IMG/VR virus record: IMGVR_UViG_3300045988_110372
Coordinates: 1-64,000 of that record
Reading direction: 5' to 3' (one strand)
DNA from: a virus
Length of the DNA stretch: 64,000 bases
In this document: in pieces, positions 8,555 through 46,224 of the stretch
Numbering within the stretch: the stretch's first letter is position 1
Layout: each line of letters opens with the position of its first letter
Position numbers and translations under genes: made by a program
The notes under the pieces: generated by a model
Told to the model about the DNA's origin: nothing
The model's database searches: none
What the model saw: the letters and a program-made list of their open reading frames with translations, nothing else

Positions 8555-8628
8555 GGGCAAAATGGGTGAGTGATTTAGCCAACACTCTGCAAAAGTGTTT
8601 TACAGCGGTTTGAATCCGCTTTTGCCCT
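8555..8628 (+). tRNA. tRNA-Cys (anticodon GCA), slightly non-canonical
   Basis: Hand-folded cloverleaf:
- Acceptor stem GGGCAAA/TTTGCCC (8555-61 with 8621-27).
- Anticodon stem ACACT/AGTGT with loop CTGCAAA, giving U33 and GCA at 8589-91.
- 5-nt variable loop.
- T stem AGCGG/CCGCT with loop TTTGAAT.
- D stem with one G-G mismatch and a D loop lacking GG.
- No encoded CCA. Confidence 0.6.
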
Positions 8629-14000: not shown

Positions 14001-17000
14001 AACTGTGAACTTACCGTTTTCTTATAAGAACTTAAATCGTTGGCTATACCTTGCGCATAATCACGTGCCGCATTTGAGATAGCGGTTAAAGCATTTGTTC
14101 TCTGTGTATAATACGTTGTCTGCTTTGTAGCAAAATCAGAAGGAATAGCAATTGTTTCAGGAGATGAAGCCGTAAGAGTTACCAACACAGCACGATAAGT
14201 CGTGTGTGCATTGTTGTAATTTGTAGGAGTACCTAGATTGTACTTACTATATCCGTTTGCAATCTGTGTCTTGTCTGCGTCAATTCTAGCTATTTCTTCT
14301 TTCAATGACTGCTTTTCTGTTGGAGAAATAGAACCGTCAGAAGCCCAACTATCTAATCGGCTCTTAGCTTCATCAGCATCACTTTGTGCATTGTTTGCTG
14401 CCGCTTTTGCGTTGGCAGCATCCTTTATTGCCTGATTAGCCTTTTCTTGTGCCGCATCTGCAGTTTGTTGTGCAGCATCTGCAAGGGATTTAGCCTTTGC
14501 TGATATAGCGTTCAATAAATCGGTGCGAGCATCGTAGTAATCCTTAAACTTGCTTCTGAATGCAGCTCCTGATATATTACTTGTTGTTGAAAGACTTGAA
14601 AGCAACGGTGTTATATAAGCACTTAGCGTATTATAAGCCGTATCGTAAGCAGTCCTGCTTACTCCGTACTTGTCAGCACTTGCATTGTTTTTAGGCTTTT
14701 CAGAAACAATAATATCCCATTCTTTTTTTGTTTCCTGCTTTTCCTGAGCAGTCAGCTTGTTGTCATTTGCTATATCAGACAATAAGGCGTTTGCAGTTGC
14801 CGCGCTTTGAACGGCGTTATTGGCTGTCTGCTGTGCACTATCAGCTGCTTGTTTAGCTGCATCTGCCGCAGCCTGAGCCTGATTTGCCTTAGTATCATCC
14901 GTATACTTAGAAGCAAGTTCCCAGTGCTCAATAGAAAACTGAGCATTTGCTTGTTTGGCAGTCTTGCATCGAAGCAAATCATTCTTGTAGCTTCCGTATG
15001 TAGCATTAACCCACAAATCTCCAATATCATACACCGAGGCATTAGACGGGGTAGTCACAAATACCCTTCTTTTTCCATCTGCCGTGTCCTGCGCTTTTTT
15101 AGCGTCAGCCAAAGCTTTTGTGATATCAGAATCGGTTATTACCTGCCATGTATACTTACTACCACTCACTTGAAAGCGATACGCTTTTCCATTACCATCA
15201 TAATACAAGTCGCCTAAATGTACGTTCTTGTCTTCGTTTGTAGTCCAATTTACAGCAGGCTCGTTACTTAATGTAGGAACTGGTTCATAAAACCATGTTT
15301 CAATAGCACCGTCTATTTGGTTTTTAACAGCTTCTAAATCCTTAGATAACTGATTTACAAATGAAATGTTTTCAGATAAATCAGATATAGCATCGTCTAC
15401 TTTTGTATTGACTTCCCCTACTGCGTTGTCGATATAGTCCTTTACGCTTTCTCCCGAACTGAATCTTATTGCATCGGCAATAATCATTACTTCCGAACGA
15501 GAAAATGAAACAAATTCTTTTCCGTCCAAAGAATAGGAATTGATACCACGATACAATTTAAAATACGGTGCATCATTGCCGTATGCAGACAAGATAATAG
15601 CTGCCTGACGTGTAGCATCAGACTTATTACCCAACTGTACGATATCATCGCCAGCCTTAGGTTCAGTAGAACCTGTATCGCAATCGGTTTTAGAAAGGTC
15701 TATATAGTTATCTCCTGTGCCTACAACAGCACGCCAATAGTAGGTATTAGTGACGTTCTCATTAACACCTTCCTTAACGTTAAAAGTCTGTGCCCTTGCC
15801 AAGTCACCGACAACAAATTCCTGCTCTATTGTTCTTTCTCCGTCCGTGTTCTCAAAATAGCAACGATAGAAATCTCCTTTATCCTCTATCTTAACGCAAG
15901 ACATAGATGCCGGAGTCAGAATAATCTGACCGCCAACATGCTTTATCTGTTGTATAAGCAACCGAATAAATGTGGCTACCTTTCTGACAAGCATACGGTC
16001 TACCTCCAGATAACTGTCACCGTTTTCGTCTTTCTTCAGACAGAATCCAGCCCCTAACGCACCAGTAGAGAAATTAGCTGATTCTATTCCGCTTCGTACA
16101 AGTATAGAAAGTAAATCTGCAACACCCTGTTCGTCAATATTGGCTCCTTTCAAGCCTTTTTTATAGTCGCCTATTGCCAACGCACCTCTAAGCAACAAAT
16201 TAAGCAGCTCTGCTGCTCCGTCCGCTGAAATCTTTGCACCTGACTTTTTGCTTAGATATGTACCTATTTCCAAACCGTCAATTAGCTTTACAAGGTCGTT
16301 GAATGTCTTTTCTCCCTTTGCTCTGTCGGCTACGTCCTTTCTAATAAAGTATTTGTTCCCTTGACTTAGTATGTCACCGCTTCCTATATTGGAAAGTACG
16401 TCCTGCTTAACACCGTCAAGCATTGTTTGTAATGAGTTCTGACCGATAGAAAGCGTATCTGCCAAGTTTACTTCTATTTCAGGCAATGGCGAATCTGAAC
16501 TCATTGTATATGTAAAGTTGTCTACATAGAAAGTATACTGTACCTTGTTGTATTCTACTATAAGCCGTGAATTTTCGTTCAACTGTTCAAGAATATCAGG
16601 ATGTTCTGCAAAGAATATACGGCTGAACTTTATGGAGAAGTTAAACTTCTCGCTGTTGTTTTCTGCCATATACTGAATGAGGTATTCTTTAAGGTCGTTT
16701 TCGGCTTTGTATATGTACGAATCGGGCATGTTTATGTTCAGTATGACAAATGTATCACCTGCTTTCGGTTTGAGGTTTTTTGATACATTAGGCATGACGT
16801 TTGTATAGGTTGTATCGTCTTTCTTTAGTGCAACCCATACTTCATAGTTTACCGTATCGTTCTGTCTGTCTTGCGGTGTTTCTTTCTGCAATCCGTCACG
16901 ACCGCATCTTACGTTTCCGTTCTCGTCACGTAACAGATTCCCGCTATCGTCTACCTGAACCAAATTCTTCTGTGTTTCATCTCCTGCTCCTATTTCAAAG

Positions 17001-18835
17001 GTACAAGAGCCGCACATACCGCTTGTAAACGAAAATTCCATATTTCCGCTTTCGGATGCTTGGTCGAATAGATTGAATCCGTAATCTCCGTTGAACTTTC
17101 TAAGCTTTCCGAAGAAGTAAGGATGAACGTATTCGTTTTTCTCGCCGTCAAACTCATCACTGTCATTTTCGTCATACGCAAATTCGGTGAACATGTCTAT
17201 TCTAAGTCCTTCCGCATTTGTCATTCCCTTGATAGACGGTTTAATATCTTCTGCGGTAACTTTGCCCTCTAAAGGATTGCCCTCTGAATATACGTTCTCA
17301 AATGTGTAGTATTCGTCTGAATCAGGCTTCTGATATGTGTCGTTCAGCGCATTGTAGAATCTTTGCTCGCCTTCCGTTTCTCTGTATATAGGCGGCATAA
17401 GTTCCGTACAATAAGGTATCTGCTTGCCTATATTCTGTGTAAAGTAGTCACCTACTACTAGTTTAGGGCTTCCGTTAAGACTTATACCTATTTCTTCAAG
17501 CTTGACTTCCTTTCCGTTCAAGTCCCAATATTCATAGTATGAACTAGGGAATGAAGCCTCAAAGTAGAATTTGGCACTTGTCACAGAATCACTTACAATG
17601 CCAGTGTAGGAAACCTTGAATACAACCTTGATTGTGTAGTCACCTGCTGCTACCTTATCTCCGTTGTTCAGGACTTTGTACTGTGTATCTTCTTCGCCAT
17701 ATCCCTTAATCGTAAATGACGGTGAACTTAAAGCACCCAAGCTGAAATTAATAGGCATAAAGGCGGTATTGACTGTAATGCTTGCATCATGCAGTATCGT
17801 TACGTTTACAAGGAATGTAGCCGTACTTTTATAAGCACTGCCTTCTTTTCTTACTGGTATTGATATTTCAGAATTTGCTTCGTAGTCGACAAATGTTGAC
17901 GAATTGTAAAACTCGTAGAAATTTATGACAACGACATTTTCGCCACTTTTCTTTGAGTAGATACATTTGTCAGTCGAACCTACTTTCTCGGCAAATTTGA
18001 CCGCATCTACAAGCGATAAATCGGATTGTGACAGACCTTGATTGCCTGAATATACATTTATTGAAACTTCACCCTTTGGTGTCTTGTTCGGATAGTAGTA
18101 AGGGATATTGTCACTGCTTCCTACACCAGTAATTCTGTTTACAAGGTTGTAGTTTGCGTTCTCTTTTGATACGGAAAGCAAAGCACCGTCAATGCCGTAC
18201 TTCATCACCGTAGGTATTGCGTTCTGCTCATATCCTACGTGTATGGTCTTTCCGACAAAATAGTAAGGCAGCTTATATACATTGTATATTTCCTGCAAAG
18301 CTTCAAGAATGTATTTGTCCTCGAAAGATACAAGCTGGCTTTCAGAAGTTATGCCCTCGTCAATTACGGCTGTATAGTCTATCTTTGAGTAGGACATGGA
18401 AGCATTAAGTCTAGCGACAAATTGTGTTATGTCACCCATGAACTGTACTTTCAGACTGTTGGAAACAACACCGTCAATCGTGCTGTCGCCCTGAACCGCA
18501 TCTATGAAATAGGTATGATTGAGGACTTCACGTTCGGATTTGAGAGTAACCGAATGTTCGTATCTTTCGTCCTCGTTGCTTTTAGACGATGAGGGTGTAT
18601 CTTTTACATAGAACTTCTGACCGTCAAATGAAGCATACACCTTGTTCGTCCAAAGCTTGTCGAGGCAAAGTCTGTGCTTTACGGTAGCCTCTATTGTGGG
18701 TACGCCGCCCATTCTTCCGTTTGCATCGTATTTGAAATCGCCTATGACAATCTGTTCCGTCTTGTTTGGGAACGGTGTATCCTCGATTCCGTCTACGAAT
18801 GTGTATAACTTTAAAATCTTCTCCATTGTGCACAT
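11066..18835 (-). CDS. giant tail fibre / host-recognition structural protein (2589 aa)
   Basis: A single uninterrupted 7.8-kb ORF.
- The N-terminal region resembles phage minor-structural / tail-tip proteins.
- The centre holds long Ala/Gln/Lys coiled coils such as 'AADAAKQAADSAQQTANNAVQ'.
- There are three 19-aa tandem repeats.
- Several beta-rich putative binding domains follow.
- A motif 'GDLYYDGNGKAYRF...WQ' is typical of phage fibre proteins.
An alternative ATG lies at 18826. Confidence 0.8.
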   Translation of the reverse strand: MCTMEKILKLYTFVDGIEDTPFPNKTEQIVIGDFKYDANGRMGGVPTIEATVKHRLCLDKLWTNKVYASFDGQKFYVKDTPSSSKSNEDERYEHSVTLKSEREVLNHTYFIDAVQGDSTIDGVVSNSLKVQFMGDITQFVARLNASMSYSKIDYTAVIDEGITSESQLVSFEDKYILEALQEIYNVYKLPYYFVGKTIHVGYEQNAIPTVMKYGIDGALLSVSKENANYNLVNRITGVGSSDNIPYYYPNKTPKGEVSINVYSGNQGLSQSDLSLVDAVKFAEKVGSTDKCIYSKKSGENVVVINFYEFYNSSTFVDYEANSEISIPVRKEGSAYKSTATFLVNVTILHDASITVNTAFMPINFSLGALSSPSFTIKGYGEEDTQYKVLNNGDKVAAGDYTIKVVFKVSYTGIVSDSVTSAKFYFEASFPSSYYEYWDLNGKEVKLEEIGISLNGSPKLVVGDYFTQNIGKQIPYCTELMPPIYRETEGEQRFYNALNDTYQKPDSDEYYTFENVYSEGNPLEGKVTAEDIKPSIKGMTNAEGLRIDMFTEFAYDENDSDEFDGEKNEYVHPYFFGKLRKFNGDYGFNLFDQASESGNMEFSFTSGMCGSCTFEIGAGDETQKNLVQVDDSGNLLRDENGNVRCGRDGLQKETPQDRQNDTVNYEVWVALKKDDTTYTNVMPNVSKNLKPKAGDTFVILNINMPDSYIYKAENDLKEYLIQYMAENNSEKFNFSIKFSRIFFAEHPDILEQLNENSRLIVEYNKVQYTFYVDNFTYTMSSDSPLPEIEVNLADTLSIGQNSLQTMLDGVKQDVLSNIGSGDILSQGNKYFIRKDVADRAKGEKTFNDLVKLIDGLEIGTYLSKKSGAKISADGAAELLNLLLRGALAIGDYKKGLKGANIDEQGVADLLSILVRSGIESANFSTGALGAGFCLKKDENGDSYLEVDRMLVRKVATFIRLLIQQIKHVGGQIILTPASMSCVKIEDKGDFYRCYFENTDGERTIEQEFVVGDLARAQTFNVKEGVNENVTNTYYWRAVVGTGDNYIDLSKTDCDTGSTEPKAGDDIVQLGNKSDATRQAAIILSAYGNDAPYFKLYRGINSYSLDGKEFVSFSRSEVMIIADAIRFSSGESVKDYIDNAVGEVNTKVDDAISDLSENISFVNQLSKDLEAVKNQIDGAIETWFYEPVPTLSNEPAVNWTTNEDKNVHLGDLYYDGNGKAYRFQVSGSKYTWQVITDSDITKALADAKKAQDTADGKRRVFVTTPSNASVYDIGDLWVNATYGSYKNDLLRCKTAKQANAQFSIEHWELASKYTDDTKANQAQAAADAAKQAADSAQQTANNAVQSAATANALLSDIANDNKLTAQEKQETKKEWDIIVSEKPKNNASADKYGVSRTAYDTAYNTLSAYITPLLSSLSTTSNISGAAFRSKFKDYYDARTDLLNAISAKAKSLADAAQQTADAAQEKANQAIKDAANAKAAANNAQSDADEAKSRLDSWASDGSISPTEKQSLKEEIARIDADKTQIANGYSKYNLGTPTNYNNAHTTYRAVLVTLTASSPETIAIPSDFATKQTTYYTQRTNALTAISNAARDYAQGIANDLSSYKKTVSSQFEQTNNSITAAVTSSKEYTNNAINNIQIGGRNLIAISNIVDGYIQAENGNYYSVKDGYNYCSKDFIPAKYGYYTLTLYKSISVDRHSGSIHCYDSSKKWLGICLPGITWTSPKTKTFQTLETTKYIKFTLIKGNVEGNWKLETGTKSTDWSPAPEDSENALTEYKKEVTAQFSVLEGEINSKVSSTEITTIKQEIINTAASDATKKANDAKTSAISTASADATSKANKAKQDAISTAATDATNKANKAKNDAITTAGQNADKKYATITTVKSMQTVIEQHSEKLLLKAEKTEVTTVQNNLNQTNNNLSALTTRVSKAEVALQPDNIWIGISSKVTSVSKITNIVPDSCFDDANYSLLYTGGSRVSAATANNSCPTSYCMKSTVGTIYAKSYVNVNVGEKYYVTALVNAEKCNYNVTVGLRIKLKNETYKYIELDAIESKTKGWNTSSGYITIPTDSISASICFSIKGTSNLGEAYFTKVYAYKVDESINQNYALLTSNEKRLTTFNNVANQRNTLYKTSGLKKGDIVTISFEYEARNLIWNATENSYFRVQFDDKFGWTAHSIPNLKSNGTGKIITPPLTLGGSDTNIKDSNIEMVFYYISSVLQDNKPIGYFRVWNLKVEKGERSTPWSAAPSDYSTTEEIKTGITVKENAISIFGKDVSLQGKITFSSLNSSLQSTINNKADSGDVTSSINSSKEDMAKKLGYASYADMVSAATAGNTIIEGGHIRTSLIEADALVVKTLNASNTDGVSALVNKDGMKMTQGSNVLFKLISNKATVGTTRYYAQMDLTTVYSDGSTLQGTLTPESLFLRGKTKSTDKTLKTTLMYNGLMIYDENGTGLTVNTKGIQLTYCGRTQGGSNVCAVVHYAKCIFSAYITASGYLNRSIGASIPNSSGTPIEFSVTKKATGLYRVTHNIGNTLYHVQITALSNGKLTVAVIENIYSTYFEYSTTSNYNNWSLMDAKVFIAVYYESPKLGTF
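13230..13405 (-). repeat. 3 x 57-nt in-frame tandem repeat inside the tail fibre gene
   Basis: The period of 57 nt is seen from 'GCCTTATTTGCCTTG' recurring at about 13260 and about 13317, with a diverged third copy at about 13374. It encodes 'ATKKANDAKTSAISTASAD / ATSKANKAKQDAISTAATD / ATNKANKAKNDAITTAGQN'. Confidence 0.7.
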
Positions 18836-18845
18836 ATATTTAGCA

Positions 18846-18853
18846 CAAATATA
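18846..18853 (-). promoter_or_regulatory. candidate -7 promoter box for the tail fibre gene
   Basis: The minus-strand sequence reads 'TATATTTG', just upstream of the ATG at 18835/18826. This would give a very short leader. Confidence 0.35.
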
Positions 18854-19099
18854 CTACATTTTTGTACTTATTACAATTATGCAAAGTTAAACTATGTTAA
18901 TTTGTTTGCAGATTGAAAATTAATGATTATATTTGCTTCGTATTTGATAAATGTACCGTGCGAAAATTGTAGAAAGTTCTTTTTAATAAGATATACTATA
19001 AAGAAGGCATTGGGACTACACACGGTACATTTCCAATGCTTTCTTTTTTTTTATATACTTTATGTTGTATCGGCTAGAAACCTCGGACATAAAGTTAAA

Positions 19100-19320
19100 C
19101 GCTTAGAGTAAAGCCCATGCTTAGGCGAACTGGGGAGTTAATGAACGGTAGCATGGATGCGGCATACACGCATAGGTTCTAAAAGTTGTTTCATGTATGC
19201 AGGTAAACAACCACGACTGATGGGGTGCGATGTGACGACTTGTTACATTAAAAATCCAAAAGAGTGTAACCTAAAAAGAGGATTGTACCTCTAAAGGGGA
19301 ATTTACACTCTTTCCAAAAT
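19100..19320 (+). ncRNA. candidate structured non-coding RNA (strand uncertain)
   Basis: A roughly 220-nt ORF-free stretch that is visibly more GC-rich than its flanks. It has several nested stems of at least 7 bp:
- CCATGCT/AGCATGG (19116-22 with 19150-56).
- GCATACA/TGTATGC (19163-69 with 19194-200), competing with GTTGTTT/AAACAAC (19185-91 with 19205-11).
- GAGTGTAA/TTACACTC enclosing AGAGG/CCTCT (about 19262-19310). Confidence 0.35.
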
Positions 19321-19460
19321 GCTCAGTTCAAACTTATTACCCTGAATAGCTAATGTATATAATAGGAATATTATAGTAAGTATATATTACTAATTAGGTT
19401 ATTAGTTAATTTATTCCTATATAAAATATTTATTCATGTCAATTTTTAATTTAGTAAAAA

Positions 19461-20494
19461 ATGTCTAAAAATCAACAACAGAAGAATTTATCGAAAAAGC
19501 AAGAGCTGTACACGGTGACTAGTACGATTACAGCAAAGTTGAATATAAAGGAAACAAAATTAAGGTATGTATAATTTGTCCTATACATGGAGAATTTTGG
19601 CAGAGACCAAATGACCATTTAAGTGGTTATGGATGTAAACTTTGTGCTAACTTTGAGAATGGGGAAAGGTGTAAGAGTAATATTGATGAATTTATTAAAA
19701 AAGCCGAACAAATTCATACGGGTAAATATGATTATTCCAAAGTTGAGTATATAAATAATCATACGAAAGTATGTATTATATGCCCGATTCACGGAGAGTT
19801 CTGGCAAATTCCAAATTCACACTTATTAGGTCACGGATGCCCATATTGTGCTAACTGTAAAAAGATAGATGAGAATGCGTTTTTAGAAAGGGCTAAAGCT
19901 GTTCATGGCGCGAAATACGATTATTCTCAGGTTGAATTTGTCGACAGTAAAACGTATGTTAATATAATTTGTTCAAAACATGGTAGTTTTTGGCAAACAC
20001 CTGAAAGTCATTTAAGAGGAGCAGGATGTCCTCGTTGTTCTTCTTCTAGGGGAGAGAAGGAGATAGAACGTTTTCTAAATATTTTGGGCGTTAACTTTCA
20101 ACCTCAATACCAAATAAATCTTGAACAAAAAATGTTTTCAAGAAACAACATAAGGGTTGATTTTTATCTACCAAAGTATAGCACTATAATAGAGTTTAAT
20201 GGGAAGCAGCATTATGAGTATAATTCATTTTTCTATAAAAATAGAGATGACTTTGATATACAAGTTGAACGAGATAAAAGATTAAAAGAGTATTGCAAGA
20301 ACAACAAGATAAATCTTATTATAATTAAATATAAAGATATAGATAAAATAGAAAAAATACTTGAAAAAAACATAATTAAGTTAATAAAAGCTAAATGTTT
20401 GGATGCTTTTGTTGAAGTTGCCAAAGATTATGTACCTTTACAACACTATGATAGTTTTATAAAAGATATTAATTTAAAGTTTAAAGACCTATGA
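19461..20494 (+). pseudogene. decayed homing-endonuclease-like gene (3 Zn-ribbon repeats plus a Vsr/PD-(D/E)xK-like nuclease domain)
   Basis: The ATG at 19461 is out of frame with the homologous reading frame by one nucleotide, at the A5 run 19467-71. There is also an in-frame TAG at 19520-22, giving 'VHGD*YDYSKV'. The paralog at 29768-30763 reads 'VHGDEYDYSKV' at that position. The rest is open to 20494. It has three 'HG..YDYS.VEY...K....C..HG.FW..P..H..G.GC..C' repeats and a C-terminal 'IRVDFYLPKYSTIIEFNGKQHY'. Confidence 0.7.
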
Positions 20495-20742
20495 AAATTC
20501 TATTTATCATTGCACTTTGCATTTTTGTTGCGCTCTCTTTCTACAAGTACAAATGTACTTCAATCAGCAAGTATATCAATTTCGTTGACAAGGAACTGAT
20601 GAATATCGAAACCATGAAGCGTGACCTTGAAGATTTAAGTCCTAAGGCATGTACGTTTACTTATTGTTTTGGTTATATAACCTCTCTTCTTGTGAAGCTT
20701 TCAATCGTATATCTTTCATGTTTAGGAATTTCAACACTATGA
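20491..20742 (+). CDS. small membrane protein (83 aa)
   Basis: Two hydrophobic segments. The start overlaps the upstream stop. Confidence 0.45.
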   Translation: MKILFIIALCIFVALSFYKYKCTSISKYINFVDKELMNIETMKRDLEDLSPKACTFTYCFGYITSLLVKLSIVYLSCLGISTL

Positions 20743-21005
20743 CAAACAATGAAAAGATTGATTTTATAGACAGTGTTCTAGTATATAGTTTCCAATGGGA
20801 AATAAATTTTAAGAACATACTTTTGTCTAGGATAAAGAAAGCTATGCCCGAAGCGTTAGATGTAAGTATATGTGACGATTCTTTCGACAATTATTACGTA
20901 TGCGTAATTTATAAGGATGAAACAATTCACAGCCTTTACGAAATACAAGACGGACTAGTTATTGACATGCTTTATGATTTGTGTCTGTTTATTAAGGAGG
21001 ATTGA
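20739..21005 (+). CDS. hypothetical protein (88 aa)
   Basis: I chose the ATG at 20739, which forms an ATGA overlap with the upstream stop, over the track start at 20649. Confidence 0.5.
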   Translation: MTNNEKIDFIDSVLVYSFQWEINFKNILLSRIKKAMPEALDVSICDDSFDNYYVCVIYKDETIHSLYEIQDGLVIDMLYDLCLFIKED

Positions 21006-21007
21006 CT

Positions 21008-21148
21008 ATGGAAATATATTACACTGAAGAAGAAATCAGGAATTTCCCAAGATGTGCCTTATGTGGAAGAATAATATTTCCTGACGAACCTATTTATGGC
21101 AATTTTGTATACTATTGTGAATATTGTTGGTTTAATCATGTAAATTGA
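21008..21148 (+). CDS. small Zn-ribbon protein (46 aa)
   Basis: 'CALCG...CEYC' forms two CxxC pairs. It is below the ORF-track cut-off. Confidence 0.4.
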   Translation: MEIYYTEEEIRNFPRCALCGRIIFPDEPIYGNFVYYCEYCWFNHVN

Positions 21149-21224
21149 GCCTATGGATTTCGGACAAGATTACCCAAGTGACGAAGAATACGATGATTTT
21201 GACAATTATAATGATGAGTAATTT

Positions 21225-21443
21225 ATGCAAAGAAACTATGTGATAAACAGAGGCAATTTTGAAATAAGAATTGACTTTGGAAAAGAAAACTCAAAGGACT
21301 ATACCACAATGGTAAAGTCCGAAGTAAAAGACGGAAAGGTAAAGGTTGTTGAAGCAACTACTTTAGGGAAAGCCTACAAATGGGATAAGGATAGGATAAA
21401 CTCGTATCTCATGGAATTATACGGATTGGAGGATAAAGAATGA
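21225..21443 (+). CDS. hypothetical protein (72 aa)
   Basis: Intact ORF. No motif recognised. Confidence 0.5.
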   Translation: MQRNYVINRGNFEIRIDFGKENSKDYTTMVKSEVKDGKVKVVEATTLGKAYKWDKDRINSYLMELYGLEDKE

Positions 21444-21594
21444 AGGAATTTTAATGTTTTATATTGTATTTAATTATTTGTGGCGTTCCAATAGAACTGA
21501 TATTAAGATATTTCAATTACACCCCTAACATAATGGAAAGTCTTATCCTAGGTGCTTGCTTTTGTATCTTATACGAAATTAACAATAAAAAGAA

Positions 21595-21633
21595 ATCCCC
21601 ACCTGCTGAATGAGTAAGTGGGGATGTTTATTG
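21595..21633. terminator. bidirectional intrinsic terminator
   Basis: The stem ATCCCCAC/GTGGGGAT (21595-602 with 21618-25) is flanked by A/T runs and lies between convergent genes. Confidence 0.6.
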
Positions 21634-21636
21634 TAT

Positions 21637-22198
21637 TTAAACTAATTCTACATATAAACCTACTAGCGCACTTAAATCGTGGCTTAATGGAATGCCGCTG
21701 TCACGTGTACATCTGTATAACACGCCATCCTGGGTATAGTATTTATTGGCAAATATTTCCATAGGAGGCGTATATGGAATAGCATCATCTATTGTACCCT
21801 CATGTTCTTCATCAACTACTTTCCACAATGATGCAGTTTCAAGACCTGGCTTCCCAAAGCAAATCGTCACACTGATATTTTTCTCCTTTCTTCACCGACA
21901 AGTCATCCGCTGACCACATCGGGAAAAGCGACTTTCTTTCGAGTGCCTGATTATTCGTAATAGGAATAGCGTGATACATTCAGGTATAACATAAGCCTTG
22001 TATGAGTATTCGTCTATCTTATCAAGCGAATCAATATCTTTCACCGCTTCATCGTGCTTCATTATTCCGTTGGCTTCTTCTTCCGTCACTTCAATGTAGT
22101 TGTCTTAACTTACATTCTCTCCTTTCACAGACTTATAAAAAAAACATCTTGTCCTTATCCGACAAGTAATATCCTTCTTTTGCTTTTATCTCTTTCAT
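21637..22198 (-). pseudogene. fragmented gene for a protein with an aromatic 'W..Y..G..Y.C' (CBM5/12-like) motif
   Basis: Coding potential continues across at least three frame changes and one in-frame TAA at 22105-07. The first break falls in an 8-nt homopolymer at 22137-44. The fragments read 'MKEIKAKEGYYLSDKDKMFF', '...DNYIEVTEEEANGIMKHDEAVKDIDSLDKIDEYSYKAYVIPE', 'AIPITNNQALERKSLFPMWSADDLSVKKGEKYQCDDLLWEA' and 'KPGLETASLWKVV...YYTQDGVLYRCTRDSG...DLSALVGLYVELV'. Confidence 0.55.
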
Positions 22199-22212
22199 AA
22201 TTACTCCTTTCG

Positions 22213-27104: not shown

Positions 27105-29768
27105 CTAACTCCAAAAACTATCGTCAAATACGTTTGCCTTATCCAATCCTAAATCGTTATCCTCTTCCAACGCCACTTCCGAAGCTATAAGCTCCTGACC
27201 GTATTCGTATTTCAACAGAGGAAGCATCCTCATTGCAATAGGGTCTAGCAAGTCCATAGACCTGTTCTTTCCCAACATCTGATTCATTTCCTTCTTGTTG
27301 AAAAGCGTCTTTTTACCACTGGGCAAACCTTTCCATCTCACGACAGAACACTCTTCTATAAATTCCGTCTTTATCGTAATGGGATTGCTCATTCTCTTGT
27401 GAGGATAAATAGCTTCCGCAATAGAATCCTCAAATGAAAGCAAACCTCTCTTTATAACCTCTACCAATCGTCCGTAGCACTCGTCCTTCATGTTGTAGTG
27501 CATACGCCAATACAACCCATTTGGTCTGTTGTATGATTTAAAACCTATCGCACCGTTGATATAGTCGTTTATATAAGCAGCCCTAATAGCATCGTAGATT
27601 ATATGATTGTCAGGTATTCCGTGTCTTTCTGCCATCTGCATCAGCATCTCTGCGTTAAGTCGTGGCGTACTTGTACATAATATCTTATAGTCTATGATAT
27701 GCAGACCGTTCCAAACAAGTATTACCGTGTTATCGTCACCAGTGTCAGCCAAGTCTGCCGTTATCCATTTGTCGTTGTTCTTTCGTGGGTCGTTGTTGAA
27801 AACGCTTTCGGCAGTAGCGTATGGGATAGGTGCTTCTGCATCGTTTTTTAAAGATACATTCCAATTACCTTCAATAAGCTGTTGTGCCTGCCTTCCACCA
27901 ACTGCTGCAACACTACCAGCGTAGTCCATATTGTTACCGATAGAAGCCTTGTTCTCTGACATTCTACCTAAATAGAATGTAAAGCTTTTTATAAGGTTCT
28001 TATATGTAAACCCACCACCTAAAGATTTTATCTTTCTATCAATATCGTCCCTGCATTTTCTGTAAACTTCTTCTTTTGAATCACCCCAAACAACATCGTC
28101 TACATTCTCTCCTTGAAGATAGAAGTATCTCACGACACCGTTTCTATCTTCCATTATTTGCCCATCCAATCCAACATACCAATCAATGAATTTTCTAACC
28201 CAGCAGTCTTTTTCGGGGTTTGTAGTTCCTCTGAATTTGCCCGACCATTTGGCTTTACCACGGTTACGTGATAGTAGATATTTGAACGTAGAAAACTCAT
28301 ACGAAGTCAATTCGTCCATATATATTAAGTCGTACTGGCTACCTTTCCAAGTTTCAGTTACCTTTCGTATATTTTCATCGTTAATCTGCCTGAAATCAAC
28401 AAACGCCCCTGACGGAAACCTTACACGTGGAGGGTCTGTTGATTTCACTTCAATGTGATTACCATAGGCAGATTTAAAATCGTCTGTCAAAGAACCACCA
28501 CCTTTCAATTCCGAGAATGTTCTTCGTGTGAAACATGCACGGAAATTTGGGTCTAATGATGGCTCGGCAACAGAAAGGATTGCAGCAAAAGACTTTCCGC
28601 AGTTCCTTGTTATAACGTATCCATCTGTTAAATATATATGCTCGTTACCCGAAACATTTATACATCTAACATTTTTTTTGCCGACAAGTTTATAATCCAT
28701 AATGCTTAGCATTGTGCTACATTTTCTGTCTTTTTCAGTTATAGCCTTATTTTTTTTTCTATCTAAGCAAAACAAATCTTTATCATTCTTAGTCCACACT
28801 AACAATCCGTAAGATTTAGCACAGTTTACCTCTTTCCCATTTTGTATTCTTTTTGTTTTATCTGTAATGTGTATTGAACATCTTCCACCTATACTCCATA
28901 TTAATTCTTGAATATCATTTGCCAAATTTTCACTTGTTGTCCTGTAAGAAACTCTGCTTTTCCTATTTGTGCTAGATTGGGAGCAGCAGCCATCTGTATC
29001 GAACAGCCCTCTTATAAGCTCCATTCTGTCTTCTATACTTGAATACTTATATATGTTAGGTATAAATTTATCATAAGACAATTTGCCCCACAATCCAAGT
29101 TCCTTCAAATACTCAACAACTTCTTTATTTCTGATGCAATAATGCAGGCTATTCTTATTTTTACTTTCTTTAACTATATCATATCCTAACCCTTTTATTC
29201 TTTCAATAGTTTGATAATCCTTAGAATGGCAAGCAAGGTCAGCTCTATGTAACTTATTAGATAAACAACCATCGCCTATTAGACAACCTAGTAAATACGG
29301 ATGTATTTTAAGATTATCTTTTTTGTAAAAAGATACAGGCTGAGTAAGAGGTATTCTCAATCTATTCACATGTCTTTTATCCCTATTCTTAGATTTATCA
29401 ATATATTTTATAATATCTTCGGAAGAAATATCAATAATATTTCCATGCCTTTCTTTTACCATCCAACGGTGAGAAAGAGCACTCTGAACCTTCCTTCCAT
29501 CTTGTAACGTAAACTCAACAACATCTTGTAGTCCTTTGTCTATTACAAAATTAACCACTTGATTTCCACCCATTGGATTATGTATTATATCTCCTACCTT
29601 TATATCTCCCATTTTTCTAAATCCGTCAGGAGTTGATATTAAGGCATCCATTGGTTGAGGGTTGAGTACCCCTCCGCCTATAACCACGTCTATATTGCTG
29701 CGGACGAAATTTTCTTGAAATCCTTCCTGCGGTCTGATAATTCTTATTTCACTTTCTTCATTTGCCAT
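27105..29768 (-). CDS. terL: terminase large subunit, interrupted by an intein
   Basis: The exteins give a P-loop 'VVIGGG|CGKSFAAIL', a Walker B 'YDLIYMDELTSYE' and a C-terminal nuclease-like half. A 356-aa insertion has Hint and LAGLIDADG motifs. Confidence 0.9.
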   Translation of the reverse strand: MANEESEIRIIRPQEGFQENFVRSNIDVVIGGGVLNPQPMDALISTPDGFRKMGDIKVGDIIHNPMGGNQVVNFVIDKGLQDVVEFTLQDGRKVQSALSHRWMVKERHGNIIDISSEDIIKYIDKSKNRDKRHVNRLRIPLTQPVSFYKKDNLKIHPYLLGCLIGDGCLSNKLHRADLACHSKDYQTIERIKGLGYDIVKESKNKNSLHYCIRNKEVVEYLKELGLWGKLSYDKFIPNIYKYSSIEDRMELIRGLFDTDGCCSQSSTNRKSRVSYRTTSENLANDIQELIWSIGGRCSIHITDKTKRIQNGKEVNCAKSYGLLVWTKNDKDLFCLDRKKNKAITEKDRKCSTMLSIMDYKLVGKKNVRCINVSGNEHIYLTDGYVITRNCGKSFAAILSVAEPSLDPNFRACFTRRTFSELKGGGSLTDDFKSAYGNHIEVKSTDPPRVRFPSGAFVDFRQINDENIRKVTETWKGSQYDLIYMDELTSYEFSTFKYLLSRNRGKAKWSGKFRGTTNPEKDCWVRKFIDWYVGLDGQIMEDRNGVVRYFYLQGENVDDVVWGDSKEEVYRKCRDDIDRKIKSLGGGFTYKNLIKSFTFYLGRMSENKASIGNNMDYAGSVAAVGGRQAQQLIEGNWNVSLKNDAEAPIPYATAESVFNNDPRKNNDKWITADLADTGDDNTVILVWNGLHIIDYKILCTSTPRLNAEMLMQMAERHGIPDNHIIYDAIRAAYINDYINGAIGFKSYNRPNGLYWRMHYNMKDECYGRLVEVIKRGLLSFEDSIAEAIYPHKRMSNPITIKTEFIEECSVVRWKGLPSGKKTLFNKKEMNQMLGKNRSMDLLDPIAMRMLPLLKYEYGQELIASEVALEEDNDLGLDKANVFDDSFWS
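28602..29669 (-). mobile_element. intein (Hint domain plus LAGLIDADG homing endonuclease) in the TerL P-loop, class-3-like
   Basis: The element spans residues 34-389.
- N-terminal Hint block: 'ALISTPDGFRKMGDIKVGD'.
- Block B: 'ALSHRW'.
- LAGLIDADG motifs: 'LLGCLIGDGCL' and 'LIRGLFDTDGCC'.
- Blocks F and G: 'VRCINVSGNEHIYLTDGYVITRN', followed by Cys at +1.
The N-terminal boundary is inferred from restoring the sequence GGGCGKS. Confidence 0.75.
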
Positions 29769-41852: not shown

Positions 41853-41885
41853 AGCCACCCCGATTATGAGGTGGCTTTCTTTATT
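41853..41885. terminator. bidirectional intrinsic terminator
   Basis: The stem AGCCACC/GGTGGCT (41853-59 with 41870-76) is followed by 'TTCTTTATT'. It lies between convergent genes. Confidence 0.65.
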
Positions 41886-42741
41886 ATTGTCGTTCTCTTA
41901 AAATATCGTCTACTATCTTCTTGAAGTATTCCCTACCTTTTACCGTAATAAGAGTTTGTGTACCTGCCTTACCATTCTCTTCTCTGTTCCATTCTTTCAG
42001 AACGAAATACTTGTCTACATACTTCGCAATAGGTTTCAGTTTACCTTTAGCGTCACGATATATATACTTGTTATCAATCAGCATGAAGATAAATGCCTTT
42101 TCTCCTATTCCTAAAAGTTTGGCTGTATCACGGAAGTTTAGGTTATTTCCTCGTTCAATAAGACCGTTAAAATATTCCACTTTGGGGGCATCTTTTTTGA
42201 TTTTGTTTTCTGCTTCAAGTAATCTTTGCTCTTTACGCTTTAATGTTTCTTGTGCAATCATTAAGGCACGAGCCATAAGTTCTTCGGGGGTTTCATTTTC
42301 TTTGGCTAGCATATAACCACCCTGTTTGCGTATTGAGGGCAACACTTCACTTGTAACCCATTTTCTAAATGGTCTTACATTAGGACTATCTGAGAATAAA
42401 AGCACATCATAAAAGCCACTTTCATTAACAAAATTAGCCATCGAATTGCCTGTTATTTCACCCTCACCGTGTTTTAGGGCGTGTAAATCAATGAGTTGCA
42501 AATCTTGTGGGTCTAATCTTGATTTCACAGATGATGGATTTTTTAGACCAACAGCCTTGCAAATATCACTCAAACAAAACATAGGCTCATCATTCTTGAT
42601 TATTACCCTTACATTACCAAACTCTTGATTGTTGAAAATCTGAATGCCTTTTTCGTTGGCAGACGCTGAATTTTGCAAGCTATCGTTTGCGGAATCAGAA
42701 AAATTCATTATCTTTGTCATACTTTGTATGATTTGCAGCAA
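41884..42741 (-). CDS. Bro-N / KilAC (ANT) domain antirepressor-like protein
   Basis: The Bro-N part reads 'FNNQEFGNVRVIIKNDEPMFCLSDICKAVGL...SVKSRLD'. The C-terminal KilAC-like part reads 'NFRDTAKLLGIGEKAFIFMLIDNKYIYRD'. Confidence 0.75.
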   Translation of the reverse strand: MLQIIQSMTKIMNFSDSANDSLQNSASANEKGIQIFNNQEFGNVRVIIKNDEPMFCLSDICKAVGLKNPSSVKSRLDPQDLQLIDLHALKHGEGEITGNSMANFVNESGFYDVLLFSDSPNVRPFRKWVTSEVLPSIRKQGGYMLAKENETPEELMARALMIAQETLKRKEQRLLEAENKIKKDAPKVEYFNGLIERGNNLNFRDTAKLLGIGEKAFIFMLIDNKYIYRDAKGKLKPIAKYVDKYFVLKEWNREENGKAGTQTLITVKGREYFKKIVDDILRERQ

Positions 42742-42801
42742 ATATACTAATTAAAGCGTTAATTACAAAATGTATTTGCTTAAAAGTTAGCCATGCCTTA
42801 G

Positions 42802-43107
42802 TCAAGGTGTGGCTTTCTTGTATTCTTCCGTAAAGTTGCTATACATATCCTTGTATATTCTCTGATTGTTAATCATCCAGCCGATGTTGCTTATTCCTTT
42901 GAATACGGCTCTTTTGCTTCTGAAAAACTCTTTGGATAATGTACCTATTGATACGTTTAATTCCTTGTGAAGATAATACCATACAAAATGCCTTGCAAGT
43001 GGTATCTGACTGCTTCTGCTTGAACTGTAAAGTTTTTTTTCTTCAATTCCGAAATGTTTTGATGCAAATCTACTCAATTTCTCAATCTTCGATTCCATAT
43101 AATACAC
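42802..43107 (-). CDS. small DnaA-domain-IV-like HTH protein (101 aa)
   Basis: 'SQIPLARHFVWYYLHKELNVSIGTLSKEFFRSKRAVFKGISNI' resembles the DnaA C-terminal HTH layout. It is paralog-like to 59701-59991. Confidence 0.45.
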   Translation of the reverse strand: MYYMESKIEKLSRFASKHFGIEEKKLYSSSRSSQIPLARHFVWYYLHKELNVSIGTLSKEFFRSKRAVFKGISNIGWMINNQRIYKDMYSNFTEEYKKATP

Positions 43108-43317: not shown

Positions 43318-43392
43318 ATGCAAATCAAAACTATGGACGGTCAGTCTTATAACGTGACTGGCGCAGGTCAAGGTAATTTTAACACAGTGGGT
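43318..43392 (+). CDS. exon 1 of the intron-split Cys-rich protein gene (25 codons)
   Basis: 'MQIKTMDGQSYNVTGAGQGNFNTVG' ends on a complete codon GGT. The final U pairs with G43406 in the predicted P1 helix. An in-frame stop follows 2 codons into the intron. Confidence 0.6.
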
Positions 43393-44502
43393 AAATAAGG
43401 CAGTTGCTCACTTAAAACTCCCTTAATTGCTGGAAACTCCTAACGTAAAGACGAGGACAATCAGCAGCCAAGTTCTTTGAAATGTTGATTAATATTGCTA
43501 TATTTACAAATAAATGCATAATTATATGGAAGGAGTAGTTTATAAATATACGTCTCCAAGTGGAAAGGTATATATAGGACAAACTTCAAATGAGAAAAGA
43601 AGACGTTCTGAGTTTTTTAGAATTAATCAATCTTATGGTGAAAGTAAAATGGATAACGCAAGAAAAAAATATGGAGTTGAAAATTTCTTATATGAAGTTT
43701 TGTTCAGGGAAGAATTTGACGACTTGGGTGTTATGGCTAAAACTTTAAATGAAAAGGAAATGTATTATATAAAACTTTTTGATTCATTTAAAAGTGGCTA
43801 TAATATGAATGAAGGAGGTGCTGGTAATGTAGGATTTGAAATGCCAAATGATTCAAGATTGAAAATATCAGAAAACACTAAGCATACAATAAAAGAAAAA
43901 GGACATCCGATGAAGGGTAGAAAGCATACAGAAGAGAGCATAAATAAAATGCGTAAAAATACCCAAAAAAAGTTCGGTAAAGAAAACCCAAATTATGGAT
44001 GGAAACCATCAAAGGAATTGATTGATAGGCTTTCTGAATTGTCAAAAATGAGAGTTGGAAATAAGAACCCGTTTTTTGGTAAGCACCATACCGAGGAAAA
44101 TAAACAAAAATATCGAAATTTGTTTGGAAAGAAAGTTGTTCAAATAGATAAATTCACAGATAAGGTAATATCAATTTATGATTCAGCAAATGAAGCCGCT
44201 ATTTCTGTATGTGGTAATATAAAAGCTGCGTCAGACATAGGAAAGTGCTGCAATGGATACATAAATAAAAAAGGCGTAAAAATAAAAACAGCTCATGGGT
44301 ATAAATGGCAATGGTATCAACAATTCGAAGAAAAGGTTCATCGACTATCGAAAGCATAGGTTAATCCGAATAAGCGAGTAGAGTACATTCAAGTGAATGG
44401 AAATGGGGAGCACCAAAAAGGTGAAGATATAGTCAAATCTGTATAGAAATATACAGCTGCTTTTAGGCGGGTTAGAATTAACGAATCTAACTGAATATTA
44501 TG
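43393..44502 (+). mobile_element. group I self-splicing intron (IA-like) carrying a GIY-YIG homing endonuclease ORF
   Basis: Recognised core elements:
- P 'AATTGCTGGAAA' at 43425-36.
- Q 'AATCAGCAGC' at 43459-68.
- R 'GTTCATCGACTATCG' at 44336-50.
- S 'AAGATATAGTC' at 44424-34.
Predicted helices:
- P1: 43386-92 with 43406-12, with a U-G pair at the splice site.
- P3: 43418-23 with 44405-10.
- P4: 43427-32 with 43462-67.
- P7: 44343-47 with 44430-34.
- P8 hairpin: 44411-23.
- P9 hairpin with a GAAA loop: 44439-56.
The terminal G is at 44502. Confidence 0.8.
43514..44359 (+). CDS. GIY-YIG homing endonuclease (I-TevI-like architecture)
   Basis: It has 'GVVYKYTSPSGKVYIGQT...RRRSEF...YNMNEGG' (GIY-YIG). 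It also has three NUMOD3-like 'G(H/K)..(K)GRKHTEE' / 'NP.FGKHHTEE' repeats and a C-terminal 'AHGYKWQW'. The ORF end overlaps the intron R element. Confidence 0.85.
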   Translation: MHNYMEGVVYKYTSPSGKVYIGQTSNEKRRRSEFFRINQSYGESKMDNARKKYGVENFLYEVLFREEFDDLGVMAKTLNEKEMYYIKLFDSFKSGYNMNEGGAGNVGFEMPNDSRLKISENTKHTIKEKGHPMKGRKHTEESINKMRKNTQKKFGKENPNYGWKPSKELIDRLSELSKMRVGNKNPFFGKHHTEENKQKYRNLFGKKVVQIDKFTDKVISIYDSANEAAISVCGNIKAASDIGKCCNGYINKKGVKIKTAHGYKWQWYQQFEEKVHRLSKA

Positions 44503-44934
44503 GCTGCTGCTGGTATTGCTTCTTTCTTGGGTATTAACGGTGGTAATATCTTAGGTCGCAGCGGTTGGGGATGTAACGGTGAAGGTTGTTGCTCTGACAA
44601 CACAATGGTAAACCGTTACGAACTGAACATGGCACGTGAAGCAGATTCTCTGAAATCAGAAAATGCTTTGCTGCGTTCTCAGGTTTACGTTGACCAAAAG
44701 CTGGTTGATGTTGTGAACGACTACACATCTAAGATTAACGCTTTGGGTGTAGAAGTACGTGCCAACAAGGATGCTCAGACTGCCGTTAACTTGCAGCAAA
44801 CAGCTTTGAACGCTACTCAGACCGCTACAATTAGCGCAATGAGTGCTCAGATTGCTCAGTTGCAGTCTTTGTCACAGTTTATTGTACCAAGCAATAAGGT
44901 TTGCGACACTTGCTGCTGCGGTTGTGCTCAGTAA
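44503..44934 (+). CDS. exon 2 of the intron-split Cys-rich protein gene
   Basis: It is in frame with exon 1 after removal of 43393-44502. The sequence is 'AAAGIASFLGINGGNILGRSGWGCNGEGCCSDN...coiled coil...VCDTCCCGCAQ'. The unspliced alternative is a 144-aa ORF starting at ATG 44500. Confidence 0.6.
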   Translation, partial: AAAGIASFLGINGGNILGRSGWGCNGEGCCSDNTMVNRYELNMAREADSLKSENALLRSQVYVDQKLVDVVNDYTSKINALGVEVRANKDAQTAVNLQQTALNATQTATISAMSAQIAQLQSLSQFIVPSNKVCDTCCCGCAQ

Positions 44935-45514: not shown

Positions 45515-45946
45515 ATGAATTGCAACATGATTCAACCTGCGGTAATTACCGCTACGCTTGCGGCTGGCTCTACTACATCGCCTTACTATGCACAAGTAAA
45601 CATCTCACAGCGTTTGTGCTACAAGACATGTGCTGATGTAACTCCAGTATTCAATCCTCAGTTCTCGGTGGTTTCTTTGGATTCGGTAGGCACTAATCAG
45701 TATGTAGCTACTATCCATGTAGAAGGTATCATTTCTTATGTACCTTGTGGCGGTGGATGCTGCACTAAGCAACAGCCGTTATCGCAGAACTTCACAATTC
45801 CTATCTACTCTACAACCGCACTGACAGGCGCAACCGTAGCAGCAGGTAGCGTGGTAAATTCTGTAGCTGCTTCTGCTTGTCAGAATTGTAGCCGTGCATT
45901 TGTCAGCGAAACACCGCTTACAATCACAACAGCCACAGCAGGATAA
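45515..45946 (+). CDS. Cys-containing Ala/Thr/Ser/Val-rich protein (143 aa)
   Basis: It contains 'VPCGGGCCTKQQ' and 'ACQNCS'. The composition is low in charge and beta-rich. Confidence 0.55.
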   Translation: MNCNMIQPAVITATLAAGSTTSPYYAQVNISQRLCYKTCADVTPVFNPQFSVVSLDSVGTNQYVATIHVEGIISYVPCGGGCCTKQQPLSQNFTIPIYSTTALTGATVAAGSVVNSVAASACQNCSRAFVSETPLTITTATAG

Positions 45947-46224
45947 TGGGGTGGTTATTGATTGCTCTAATCTGTATGGTGGTGGGTGTGACAGCCCATC
46001 ACCTCGGATTGACGGAAGAAGCGGCAAAGATGGCGAGCAAGATAGCGAAGTGTCCTAAATGCTGTTCGTTTTGGCTCTCTCTGCTTGTACTATTATACAT
46101 TGGCTGCAACCCGTTTGTTTCTGTTGCACTTTCTTTGTTTGTCGCTTATCTTTCTTATTATTTCGGATTGATATTGATTCTATTACAAAAACTATATAAT
46201 TGGTTATGGCAAAAAGTAAATTGA
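45946..46224 (+). CDS. small membrane protein, 3 TM (92 aa), holin-like by topology only
   Basis: Its TM segments are 'WLLIALICMVVGV', 'FWLSLLVLLYIG' and 'ALSLFVAYLSYYFGLILILL'. It also has 'CPKCC'. The start overlaps the upstream stop as ATAATGG. Confidence 0.55.
   Translation: MGWLLIALICMVVGVTAHHLGLTEEAAKMASKIAKCPKCCSFWLSLLVLLYIGCNPFVSVALSLFVAYLSYYFGLILILLQKLYNWLWQKVN

Follow-up and report, generated by a model that had tools for sequence, protein, structure and literature searches.

A predicted self-splicing group I intron with an I-TevI-type endonuclease gene splits a conserved late gene of a gut phage

The stretch of DNA analysed here (the window; 64,000 nucleotides (nt), positions 1 to 64,000 of IMG/VR record IMGVR_UViG_3300045988_110372) comes from an uncultured, siphovirus-like gut phage, which probably infects Bacteroidales. 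Between positions 43318 and 44934 it has three open reading frames (ORFs) on the + strand, 43318-43398 (26 codons), 43514-44359 (281 codons) and 44500-44934 (144 codons), and the question raised by this locus is whether they are three separate genes or parts of a single interrupted one. It is very probable that positions 43393-44502 are a mobile, self-splicing group I intron of the phage IA type, which splits a late gene of 168 codons, the capacity for self-splicing being judged from the anatomy of the RNA. An earlier note on this DNA had proposed such an intron, and the assignment is supported by partial matches to Rfam RF00028, by covariation of the helices and by the existence of intron-less alleles.

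The removal of 43393-44502 joins ...AAC ACA GUG GGU to GCU GCU GCU GGU..., giving a predicted ligated-exon junction of ...AACACAGUGGGU then GCUGCUGCUGG... and a predicted junction peptide NFNTVGAAAGIASF. Conceptual splicing at U43392/G44502 yields a protein of 168 amino acids (aa) that is collinear from end to end with uninterrupted homologs, which were found in 819 homolog clusters, most of them of 160-175 aa and covering, with exon 1, 95-100% of the query; the best homolog also has 168 aa, with 90% identity and 100% coverage across the junction. The N-terminus encoded by exon 1 agrees with that of the uninterrupted homologs, and the homolog alignment is gap-free at the junction (...GQGNFNTVG/AAAGIASFLG..., the slash marking the junction). 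The splice sites 43392/44503 and the 168-aa product of the earlier note hold, as hundreds of uninterrupted homologs read ...NFNTVG/AAAGIASF...; its alternative 3' splice site, G44493, would add Asn-Ile-Met, an insertion found in no homolog, and was rejected. The intron-less contig of the best homolog (L001) is also collinear at the DNA level (...AACACGGTCGGA GCTGCTGCTGGT...) and has no RF00028 match. It is thereby demonstrated that the conceptual product and its uninterrupted homologs are exactly collinear.

Some cluster representatives (P0005, P0030, P0053, P0100 and P0122) start with MAAAGIASF and correspond to exon-2-only gene calls, and on their contigs exon 1 is present, as are the ribozyme and the endonuclease, inserted where they are in the window. 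NCBI nr contains a 144-aa exon-2 protein (DAW10776.1 and DAY73222.1, 'MAG TPA: hypothetical protein [Caudoviricetes sp.]') which is at least 90% identical to that of the window, belonging to the same 90% cluster as the 99%-identical P0005, and 73 contigs, the longest of 84 kb, carry this exact nr protein. In the public gene model, which has neither the intron nor exon 1, the protein begins at ATG 44500, inside the intron. It had been considered that the homologs might always start at the equivalent of this ATG; this is not the case, and only the intron-bearing alleles are called so. Recognition of the intron restores the true 168-aa product and accounts for the 'truncated' members of the family.

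In the 64-kb scan with RF00028 in E-value mode, two partial matches were found on the + strand, 43428-43517 (model positions 60-138, P4-P6; 31.8 bits, E = 3e-4) and 44422-44454 (model positions 219-251, S/P7' to P9; 27.8 bits, E = 5e-3), which are collinear and represent the sole non-tRNA matches in the 64 kb. Megablast of the locus against 50,697 phage records gives short strong matches to the intron cores of Staphylococcus phages, including a 33-nt P4-P5 stretch 100% identical to Twort-like (Staphylococcus phage Twort) terminase introns and an 82-nt stretch (P7.2, P3', P8, P7') 82% identical to phage StB12. With the ORF-deleted intron (43393-43476 joined to 44330-44502) as the query, a sensitive blastn of the phage records matches 307 of them, with a query coverage of up to 89% and some of the matched stretches annotated as Intron_gpI. 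Seven ORF-free relatives were fetched, from phages StB12 (two introns) and SAP6, Pseudomonas phages PA32_GUMS and KIL3b, Vibrio phage 11895-B1 and Bacillus phage Internexus, and they score 70-100 bits on RF00028, the two StB12 introns having 95-100 bits. By these sequence matches, the kin of the intron appear to be the introns of Staphylococcus phages StB12 and Twort.

The core elements P, Q, R and S and the conserved P3-P9 helices follow one another in order on one strand, and the intron ends in an omega-G (G44502) and has a P10 guide pairing to the 3' exon (GCAGU/GCUGC); the coordinates of the features are listed in Table 1. Those previously given for P, Q, R and S, as well as for P1, P3, P7, P8 and P9, were all verified in the sequence. 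The P4 helix had been placed at 43427-32 x 43462-67, where a pairing is present, but it is better drawn one position to the right on the 5' strand and one to the left on the 3' strand, which frees G43467 for P6.

Table 1. Features of the split gene, its intron and the predicted ribozyme in the window
Feature	Position	Strand	Description
Exon 1	43318-43392	+	25 codons, MQIKTMDGQSYNVTGAGQGNFNTVG; last base U43392 is the U of the U-G wobble
Group I intron	43393-44502	+	1110 nt, IA-type, P7.1 and P7.2 present, no P2; last base omega-G 44502
Exon 2	44503-44934	+	143 codons and stop, AAAGIASFLG...CDTCCCGCAQ
Homing endonuclease gene (predicted)	43526-44359	+	277 aa; GIY-YIG catalytic domain and NUMOD3 DNA-binding motifs
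P element	43425-36	+	AATTGCTGGAAA, read from the sequence
Q element	43459-68	+	AATCAGCAGC, read from the sequence
R element	44336-50	+	GTTCATCGACTATCG, read from the sequence
S element	44424-34	+	AAGATATAGTC, read from the sequence
P1	43386..43412	+	exon AGUGGGU (43386-92) x internal guide GCUCACU (43406-12), 7 bp; U43392-G43406 wobble at the 5' splice site
P10 guide	43400-04	+	GCAGU x first 5 nt of exon 2 (GCUGC, 44503-07); one nt upstream of the P1 guide
P3 5' strand	43418-43423	+	CUCCCU x GGGGAG; 5/6 pairs compensatory across 8 introns
P3 3' strand	44405-44410	+	GGGGAG
P4	43428-33 x 43461-66	+	encloses P5/P5a; in the RF00028 alignment at model positions 60-138; covariation
P5 and P5a	43438-41 x 43454-57; 43444-45 x 43452-53	+	inside P4
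P6	43467-69 (GCC) x 44335-37	+	across the ORF-bearing loop; covaries with the StB12 introns
P6a	43473-81 (UUCUUUGAA) x 44324-32 (UUCGAAGAA)	+	9 bp, closes the ORF-bearing loop, just inside P6
P7 5' strand	44341-44347	+	U44341, bulged C44342, GACUA 44343-47; pairs with UAGUCA 44430-35
P7 3' strand	44430-44435	+	within the S element (44424-34) region; RF00028 match 44422-44454 and covariation
P7.1	44354-44375	+	G44354 and C44355 x G44374 and C44375, plus inner GG/CC
P7.2	44386-90 x 44395-99	+	3/5 pairs compensatory
P8 hairpin	44411-44423	+	CACC-AAAAA-GGUG
P9	44439-45 x 44450-56	+	GAAA loop; inside the RF00028 match; compensatory changes
Small hairpin after P9	44459-61 x 44466-68	+	compensatory changes across the P9 region (44439-44491)
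Distal P9 hairpin	44471-76 x 44486-91	+	compensatory changes across the P9 region (44439-44491)

The covariation test was made on an alignment (A3) of the ORF-deleted window intron with the seven relatives (eight introns), and the tested structure of 49 pairs was drawn from the window sequence alone, comprising P3, P4, P5/5a, P6, P7 (pseudoknot), P7.2, P8, P9 and the distal P9 hairpin. Standard pairs occupy 93.3% of the cells, compared with 35-42% after a shift of the 3' partners by 1-3 columns (slid controls), double-sided (compensatory) changes are found in 27 of the 49 pairs, and the covariation score reaches 0.50, that of the slid controls being 0.06-0.14; none of the 500 shuffles reaches any of the covariation measures. 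The minimum free energy or centroid fold of the ORF-deleted RNA recovers P3, P4, P5, P7.2, P8, P9 and the distal hairpin. In P7, five of the six pairs are invariant in all eight introns and the sixth covaries, and the G44343-C44434 pair, which adjoins the bulged C44342 and is invariant in 8/8 introns, is presumed to be the guanosine-binding pair. The RNA architecture with its covariation is a demonstrated part of the case for an intron.

A mere chance likeness to the group I consensus, in AT-rich intergenic DNA between three unrelated ORFs, would be compatible with the base composition of the sequence, with the shortness of the consensus elements and with a folding z-score that is modest (see below), yet it does not fit the window-wide E-values of 3e-4 and 5e-3 of the two RF00028 partial matches, the resemblance by blastn to curated phage introns, which extends over 89% of the ORF-deleted RNA, the 0/500 shuffles attaining the observed covariation or the exact protein collinearity across the junction. 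Its probability is negligible, and it is effectively refuted by the junction collinearity, the blastn matches and the covariation.

The intron is present at the same site in alleles 60-99% identical (L002, L003, L004, L012, L014 and L015), and the ribozyme differences between these same-site copies are compensatory in P3, P7.1, P7.2, P8, P9 and the distal hairpins. A C-G pair of P7.1 becomes U-A in L002, the P7.1 hairpin is reduced to GC-GAAA-GC in L014, and the P8 of L014 is UCCC-GAAA-GGGA, with two compensatory pairs. The P1 guide and the GTGGGT exon end are unchanged in all the intron-bearing same-site relatives, and the P10 guide covaries with exon 2, being GCAGU/GCUGC in the window and GCCGU/GCGGC in L012 in the same register; the middle pair, U-A in the window and G-C in L012, lies at the wobble base of the first Ala codon of exon 2. 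The P10 pairing is further support for the 3' splice site, and the several diverged same-site copies provide a clean natural covariation series for P10 and the peripheral helices. The P6a duplex has an energy of -12.4 kcal/mol, compared with -4.9 +/- 1.9 for shuffled partners, and its pairing is retained with compensatory changes in L002, L003 and L012. Since P6 and P6a close a loop around the long ORF, this ORF sits in the P6 loop. A local P6 hairpin drawn in the Rfam alignment (43467-43517) was set aside as a local-alignment artefact, the StB12 introns and the same-site relatives favouring the long-range P6/P6a.

In IMG/VR, the 5'-junction pattern of the intron is found on 2 contigs and a degenerate pattern of the uninterrupted junction on 49 (~4% of the loci being intron-bearing). 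One intron-less IMG/VR allele reads ...CAACACTGTGGGTGCAGCAGCAGG..., and 22 of these 49 intron-less loci have flanks identical to the exons of L014, CAACACTGTGGGT/GCAGCAGCAGG. Compared with L003, the identity of the window is 92.5% in the 5' ribozyme, 95.9% in the 3' ribozyme, 85.8% in the endonuclease, 70.5% in exon 1 and 77.6% in exon 2, and compared with L014 it is 73.9%, 75.1%, 65.6%, 77.3% and 65.8%, respectively. The noncoding ribozyme segments are thus better conserved than the endonuclease coding sequence and the exons in every pairwise comparison, with the exception of exon 1 against L014 (77.3%), which exceeds both ribozyme figures (73.9% and 75.1%). One site, a sporadic spread and matching empty sites form the picture expected of a homing intron.

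Another intron was observed in the contig SRR29757243_765766 (L013, 480-600), which has a '...NTVLGALGAASFLG'-type allele. This related intron ends with ...CGAAUGUAAG just before GCUUUAGGU, and by an ungapped alignment its insertion site would be one codon downstream of that of the window, the contig being without exon 1.

The ORF of the P6 loop is predicted to encode an I-TevI-type GIY-YIG homing endonuclease, its activity being deduced from its anatomy. The conserved start is ATG 43526, as the in-frame upstream ATG 43514 is missing from L003, and the last codons double as P6a', P6' and the P7 5' strand. The product matches TIGR01453 ('group I intron endonuclease'; 93.2 bits vs a cut-off of 56.05, E = 2.3e-26), NUMOD3 (PF07460; 37.6 bits vs a cut-off of 20.4, E = 2e-9) and the homing-endonuclease families of PHROG (phrog_314, E = 1.7e-30). 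The motifs VVYKY...KVYIGQT, EKRRRSEF, NEKEMYYIKLF and GYNMNEGG were recognised by eye as the GIY, YIG, Arg, Glu and Asn motifs; NEKE, YYI and GYNMN are invariant in the part of alignment A5 spanned by all five sequences, and the four copies that align over the N-terminus have the same N-terminal motifs. The Arg, Glu and Asn motifs are presumably the counterparts of R27, E75 and N90 of I-TevI. The earlier proposal of an I-TevI-like GIY-YIG ORF in P6, with its 3' end entering the core, is upheld by the TIGR01453 match, the P6/P6a flanks and the overlap with the P7 5' strand.

GIY-YIG endonucleases are often free-standing in phages, and exon 2 happens to start just after an ATG. The locus could accordingly be read as a free-standing homing endonuclease gene that has split the host gene into two separately translated, cooperating pieces, without RNA splicing, as in some split genes of T4-like phages. 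Such a gene would need neither group I core elements nor their conservation above its own coding sequence, whereas here group I core elements lie on either side of the ORF and pair both among themselves and with the ends of the two exons, and exon 1 has no conserved stop/restart arrangement beyond the intron's own sequence. A free-standing gene is extremely unlikely.

Several observations weigh against the intron as described here. No single RF00028 match reaches the gathering score of 50 bits, and at the gathering threshold the only Rfam match in the window is a tRNA. The shortfall arises because the ~830-nt ORF (281 codons) in the P6 loop separates the two partial matches, and the gathering score is a detection threshold and not a biological defining feature. 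The RF00028 search suggested in the earlier note therefore gives no match at gathering, but the two significant partial matches flank the ORF and the ORF-free relatives score well above that level. The folding stability of the ORF-deleted RNA is modestly above that of shuffles (z = -1.5). Among the same-site copies, the P10 of L014 (GUUGU/GCAGC) pairs in a register displaced by 1 nt, that of L003 and that of L004 each contain a single C-A mismatch, and P6a is weak in L014. On the protein side, the Pfam GIY-YIG match (PF01541) has 14.2 bits, under the cut-off of 22.6, and phmmer of the endonuclease against PDB sequences gives no match at E <= 0.01, so that its family membership rests on TIGR01453, NUMOD3 and the PHROGs.

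The RF00028 score under gathering and the 144-aa protein given from ATG 44500 by gene callers and the public record could also indicate a decayed intron relic with an inactive ribozyme, the host gene being a pseudogene or exon 2 alone being translated from ATG 44500 (144 aa). In a relic, however, one would not expect all the core helices to be intact, with their pairing held by compensatory changes across diverged copies, nor the noncoding ribozyme segments to be better conserved than the surrounding coding sequence. Exon 1 is intact and in frame, with a start codon, in all the intron-bearing alleles, the exact exon-2 protein on 73 contigs marks the intron-bearing allele as common in public assemblies, and ATG 44500 is itself within the conserved 3'-terminal sequence of the intron (AUG with omega-G). 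A relic is very unlikely.

For the self-splicing intron, the following course is proposed, in which catalysis, the order of the splicing steps and the endonuclease activity are inferred from anatomy. After transcription, the ribozyme would fold into P3-P9, with P6 and P6a closing the long P6 loop, and P1 would form between the exon-1 end AGUGGGU and the internal guide GCUCACU. The attack after U43392 would come from an exogenous guanosine, bound at the P7 pair G44343-C44434, and omega-G 44502 would then occupy this site in its turn, exon 2 being kept in P10 by GCAGU (43400-04). Ligation of the exons would give ...GGU/GCU..., to be translated into the 168-aa protein. The I-TevI-like GIY-YIG/NUMOD3 endonuclease of the P6 loop would cut intron-less alleles in co-infecting relatives, and the intron would spread by double-strand-break repair (homing).

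The textbook parallel is the td intron of phage T4, a group I intron of subgroup IA2 with I-TevI. Similarly to the td intron, the intron of the window is a phage intron with P7.1 and P7.2 between P7 and P3', it has a GIY-YIG ORF in the P6 loop whose 3' end enters the catalytic core, and its predicted endonuclease matches TIGR01453, the I-TevI family model. They differ in the host gene, which is that of thymidylate synthase in td and of a small uncharacterised protein in the window, as well as in the phage, a T-even coliphage in one case and a Bacteroidales-type gut phage in the other; additionally, the window intron has no P2, and its endonuclease has no direct sequence match to the solved I-TevI structures.

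The closest RNA relatives found are the introns of StB12 (endolysin region) and Twort (terminase large subunit, orf142), which have the same set of helices from P3 to the distal P9 hairpins, with compensatory changes. The examined StB12 copies and most of the aligned relatives have P2, unlike the window intron. The StB12 and Twort introns are ORF-less or have other endonucleases elsewhere, whereas the window intron has a GIY-YIG gene in P6, and theirs are located in the lysin gene region (StB12) or the terminase gene (Twort) of Firmicutes phages. As its closest RNA relatives are in Staphylococcus phages, the intron lineage spans phages of very different hosts.

Group I introns have already been documented in gut Bacteroidota phages, both crAss-like (PMC7886860) and Jug jumbo phages (PMC12880540), and of the 76 introns predicted in the latter, 37 were confirmed to be spliced by metatranscriptome reads (PMC12880540). 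These share with the window the ecological and host setting, split genes that are often annotated as fragments, and the company of homing endonucleases, GIY-YIG enzymes among them; their introns are found in terminase, nrdD, DNA polymerase and similar genes, in contrast to the unannotated gene of the window. The earlier note had argued from the placement of the intron that the host protein is conserved and important. The placement does point to a conserved gene, its family counting more than 800 clusters, but the importance was overstated, given the introns already documented in such phages.

The host protein has no significant family in Pfam, PHROGs or NCBIfam, a profile search of PDB sequences gives chance matches only (ribosomal protein L29, E > 0.3), and tblastn of the spliced product against phages gives nothing. 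It has a Gly-zipper-like hydrophobic N-terminus, a Cys/Gly/Trp-rich linker, an invariant CS(D/E)N..V.RYEL motif, a long helix and a Cys-rich tail. AlphaFold2, with 114 homologs, predicts a single long helix with a mean predicted local distance difference test (pLDDT) score of 68 and a predicted template modelling (pTM) score of 0.31, the parts being, from the N-terminus, a short hairpin, a helix of low confidence over the hydrophobic stretch rich in Gly and Ala (residues 19-35), a disordered linker rich in Gly, Trp and Cys and a confident helix of ~90 residues (63-152). Relatives of the host gene in assemblies are found in metagenome-assembled genomes (MAGs) assigned to Porphyromonadaceae, Prevotella and Bacteroidaceae. 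The central and C-terminal domain alone is also found in Oscillospiraceae, other Clostridia, an Agathobaculum isolate and MAGs of Treponema and Lentisphaeria (loci L016-L044), the contigs with this core domain being phage-like or from MAGs.

The copy of Agathobaculum sp. Marseille-P7918 (L027, 3878-4357 of a 655-kb contig), likely in a prophage region, has CxENT.VNRYEL and the long helix, with a clearer Gly-zipper hydrophobic N-terminus, and is placed just downstream of genes recognised by eye as holin-like and amidase-like (endolysin-type).

An i-spanin (Rz-like) role for the host protein was considered in view of the N-terminal membrane helix, the coiled coil and the C-terminal cysteines. 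It was set aside as unlikely because the core domain is also present in Firmicutes-assigned contigs, from hosts without an outer membrane, and because the genes downstream of the split gene include no evident lipoprotein partner. As a tentative best guess, the host protein may be an oligomeric, perhaps membrane-anchored, late or lysis-associated protein.

Among the genes of the window are those for a major capsid protein, a tape measure protein of 1732 aa, a terminase and a Peptidase_M15 endolysin. The capsid protein is 33% identical to that of Bacteroides phage C3_41T2LP, and megablast of the locus together with the structural region against the 50,697 phage records gives no related genome, the matches being those to short intron cores; contigs related to the window phage are of ~55-120 kb. 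The split gene belongs to a conserved cassette with the order small helix-turn-helix (HTH) regulator, split gene, two small ORFs, 92-aa membrane-type protein and DUF7841 protein, which adjoins the endolysin in the window, L003 and L014. A small HTH gene likewise sits immediately before the counterpart of the split gene in L001, L003 and L014. The 92-aa ORF (45946-46224, +), with three hydrophobic segments by eye (three transmembrane segments) and no family match, is a candidate holin gene, located two genes further downstream than the split gene and overlapping the 143-aa Cys-containing ORF before it at the stop codon of the latter. Between the tape measure gene and the split gene, on the opposite strand (41884-43107, -), are an Ant/Bro-type anti-repressor gene (phrog_130, E = 1e-63) and a gene for a 101-aa DnaA-C-like HTH protein.

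Elsewhere in the window, the 887-aa terminase large subunit (27105-29768, -) has LAGLIDADG_3 (aa 248-301, E = 1.5e-10) before Terminase_6N (aa 386-531), and its sequence ...VITRN/CGKSF... resembles an intein C-terminal junction beside the Walker A motif, which suggests that the terminase holds a second mobile element of the same phage, a putative intein with a homing endonuclease. A 2589-aa ORF (11066-18835, -) has no significant Pfam domain, with a sub-threshold Alanine_zipper, and a G+C of ~0.40, above that of its surroundings. The adjacent ~3.4 kb (18836-22212) has only two + strand ORFs of at least 100 aa (20084-20494 and 20649-21005), with a G+C down to 0.30. A tRNA is located at 8556-8627 (+; 40.9 bits on RF00005).

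The understanding of how such introns work is unchanged by this locus, which is an ordinary case of a well-known mobile element, and its practical value is the corrected gene model. It adds a further case of IA-type introns with I-TevI-like endonucleases that would be moving among gut phages, and the split gene, encoding a conserved uncharacterised small protein, may merit experimental attention. As a tentative idea of low probability, the intron could mark an uncharacterised, widely conserved late protein of gut phages that acts as a membrane-anchored component of lysis or envelope disruption, or as a coiled-coil virion fibre; if true, the expression of the host protein in intron-bearing phages would depend on, and might be timed by, RNA splicing.

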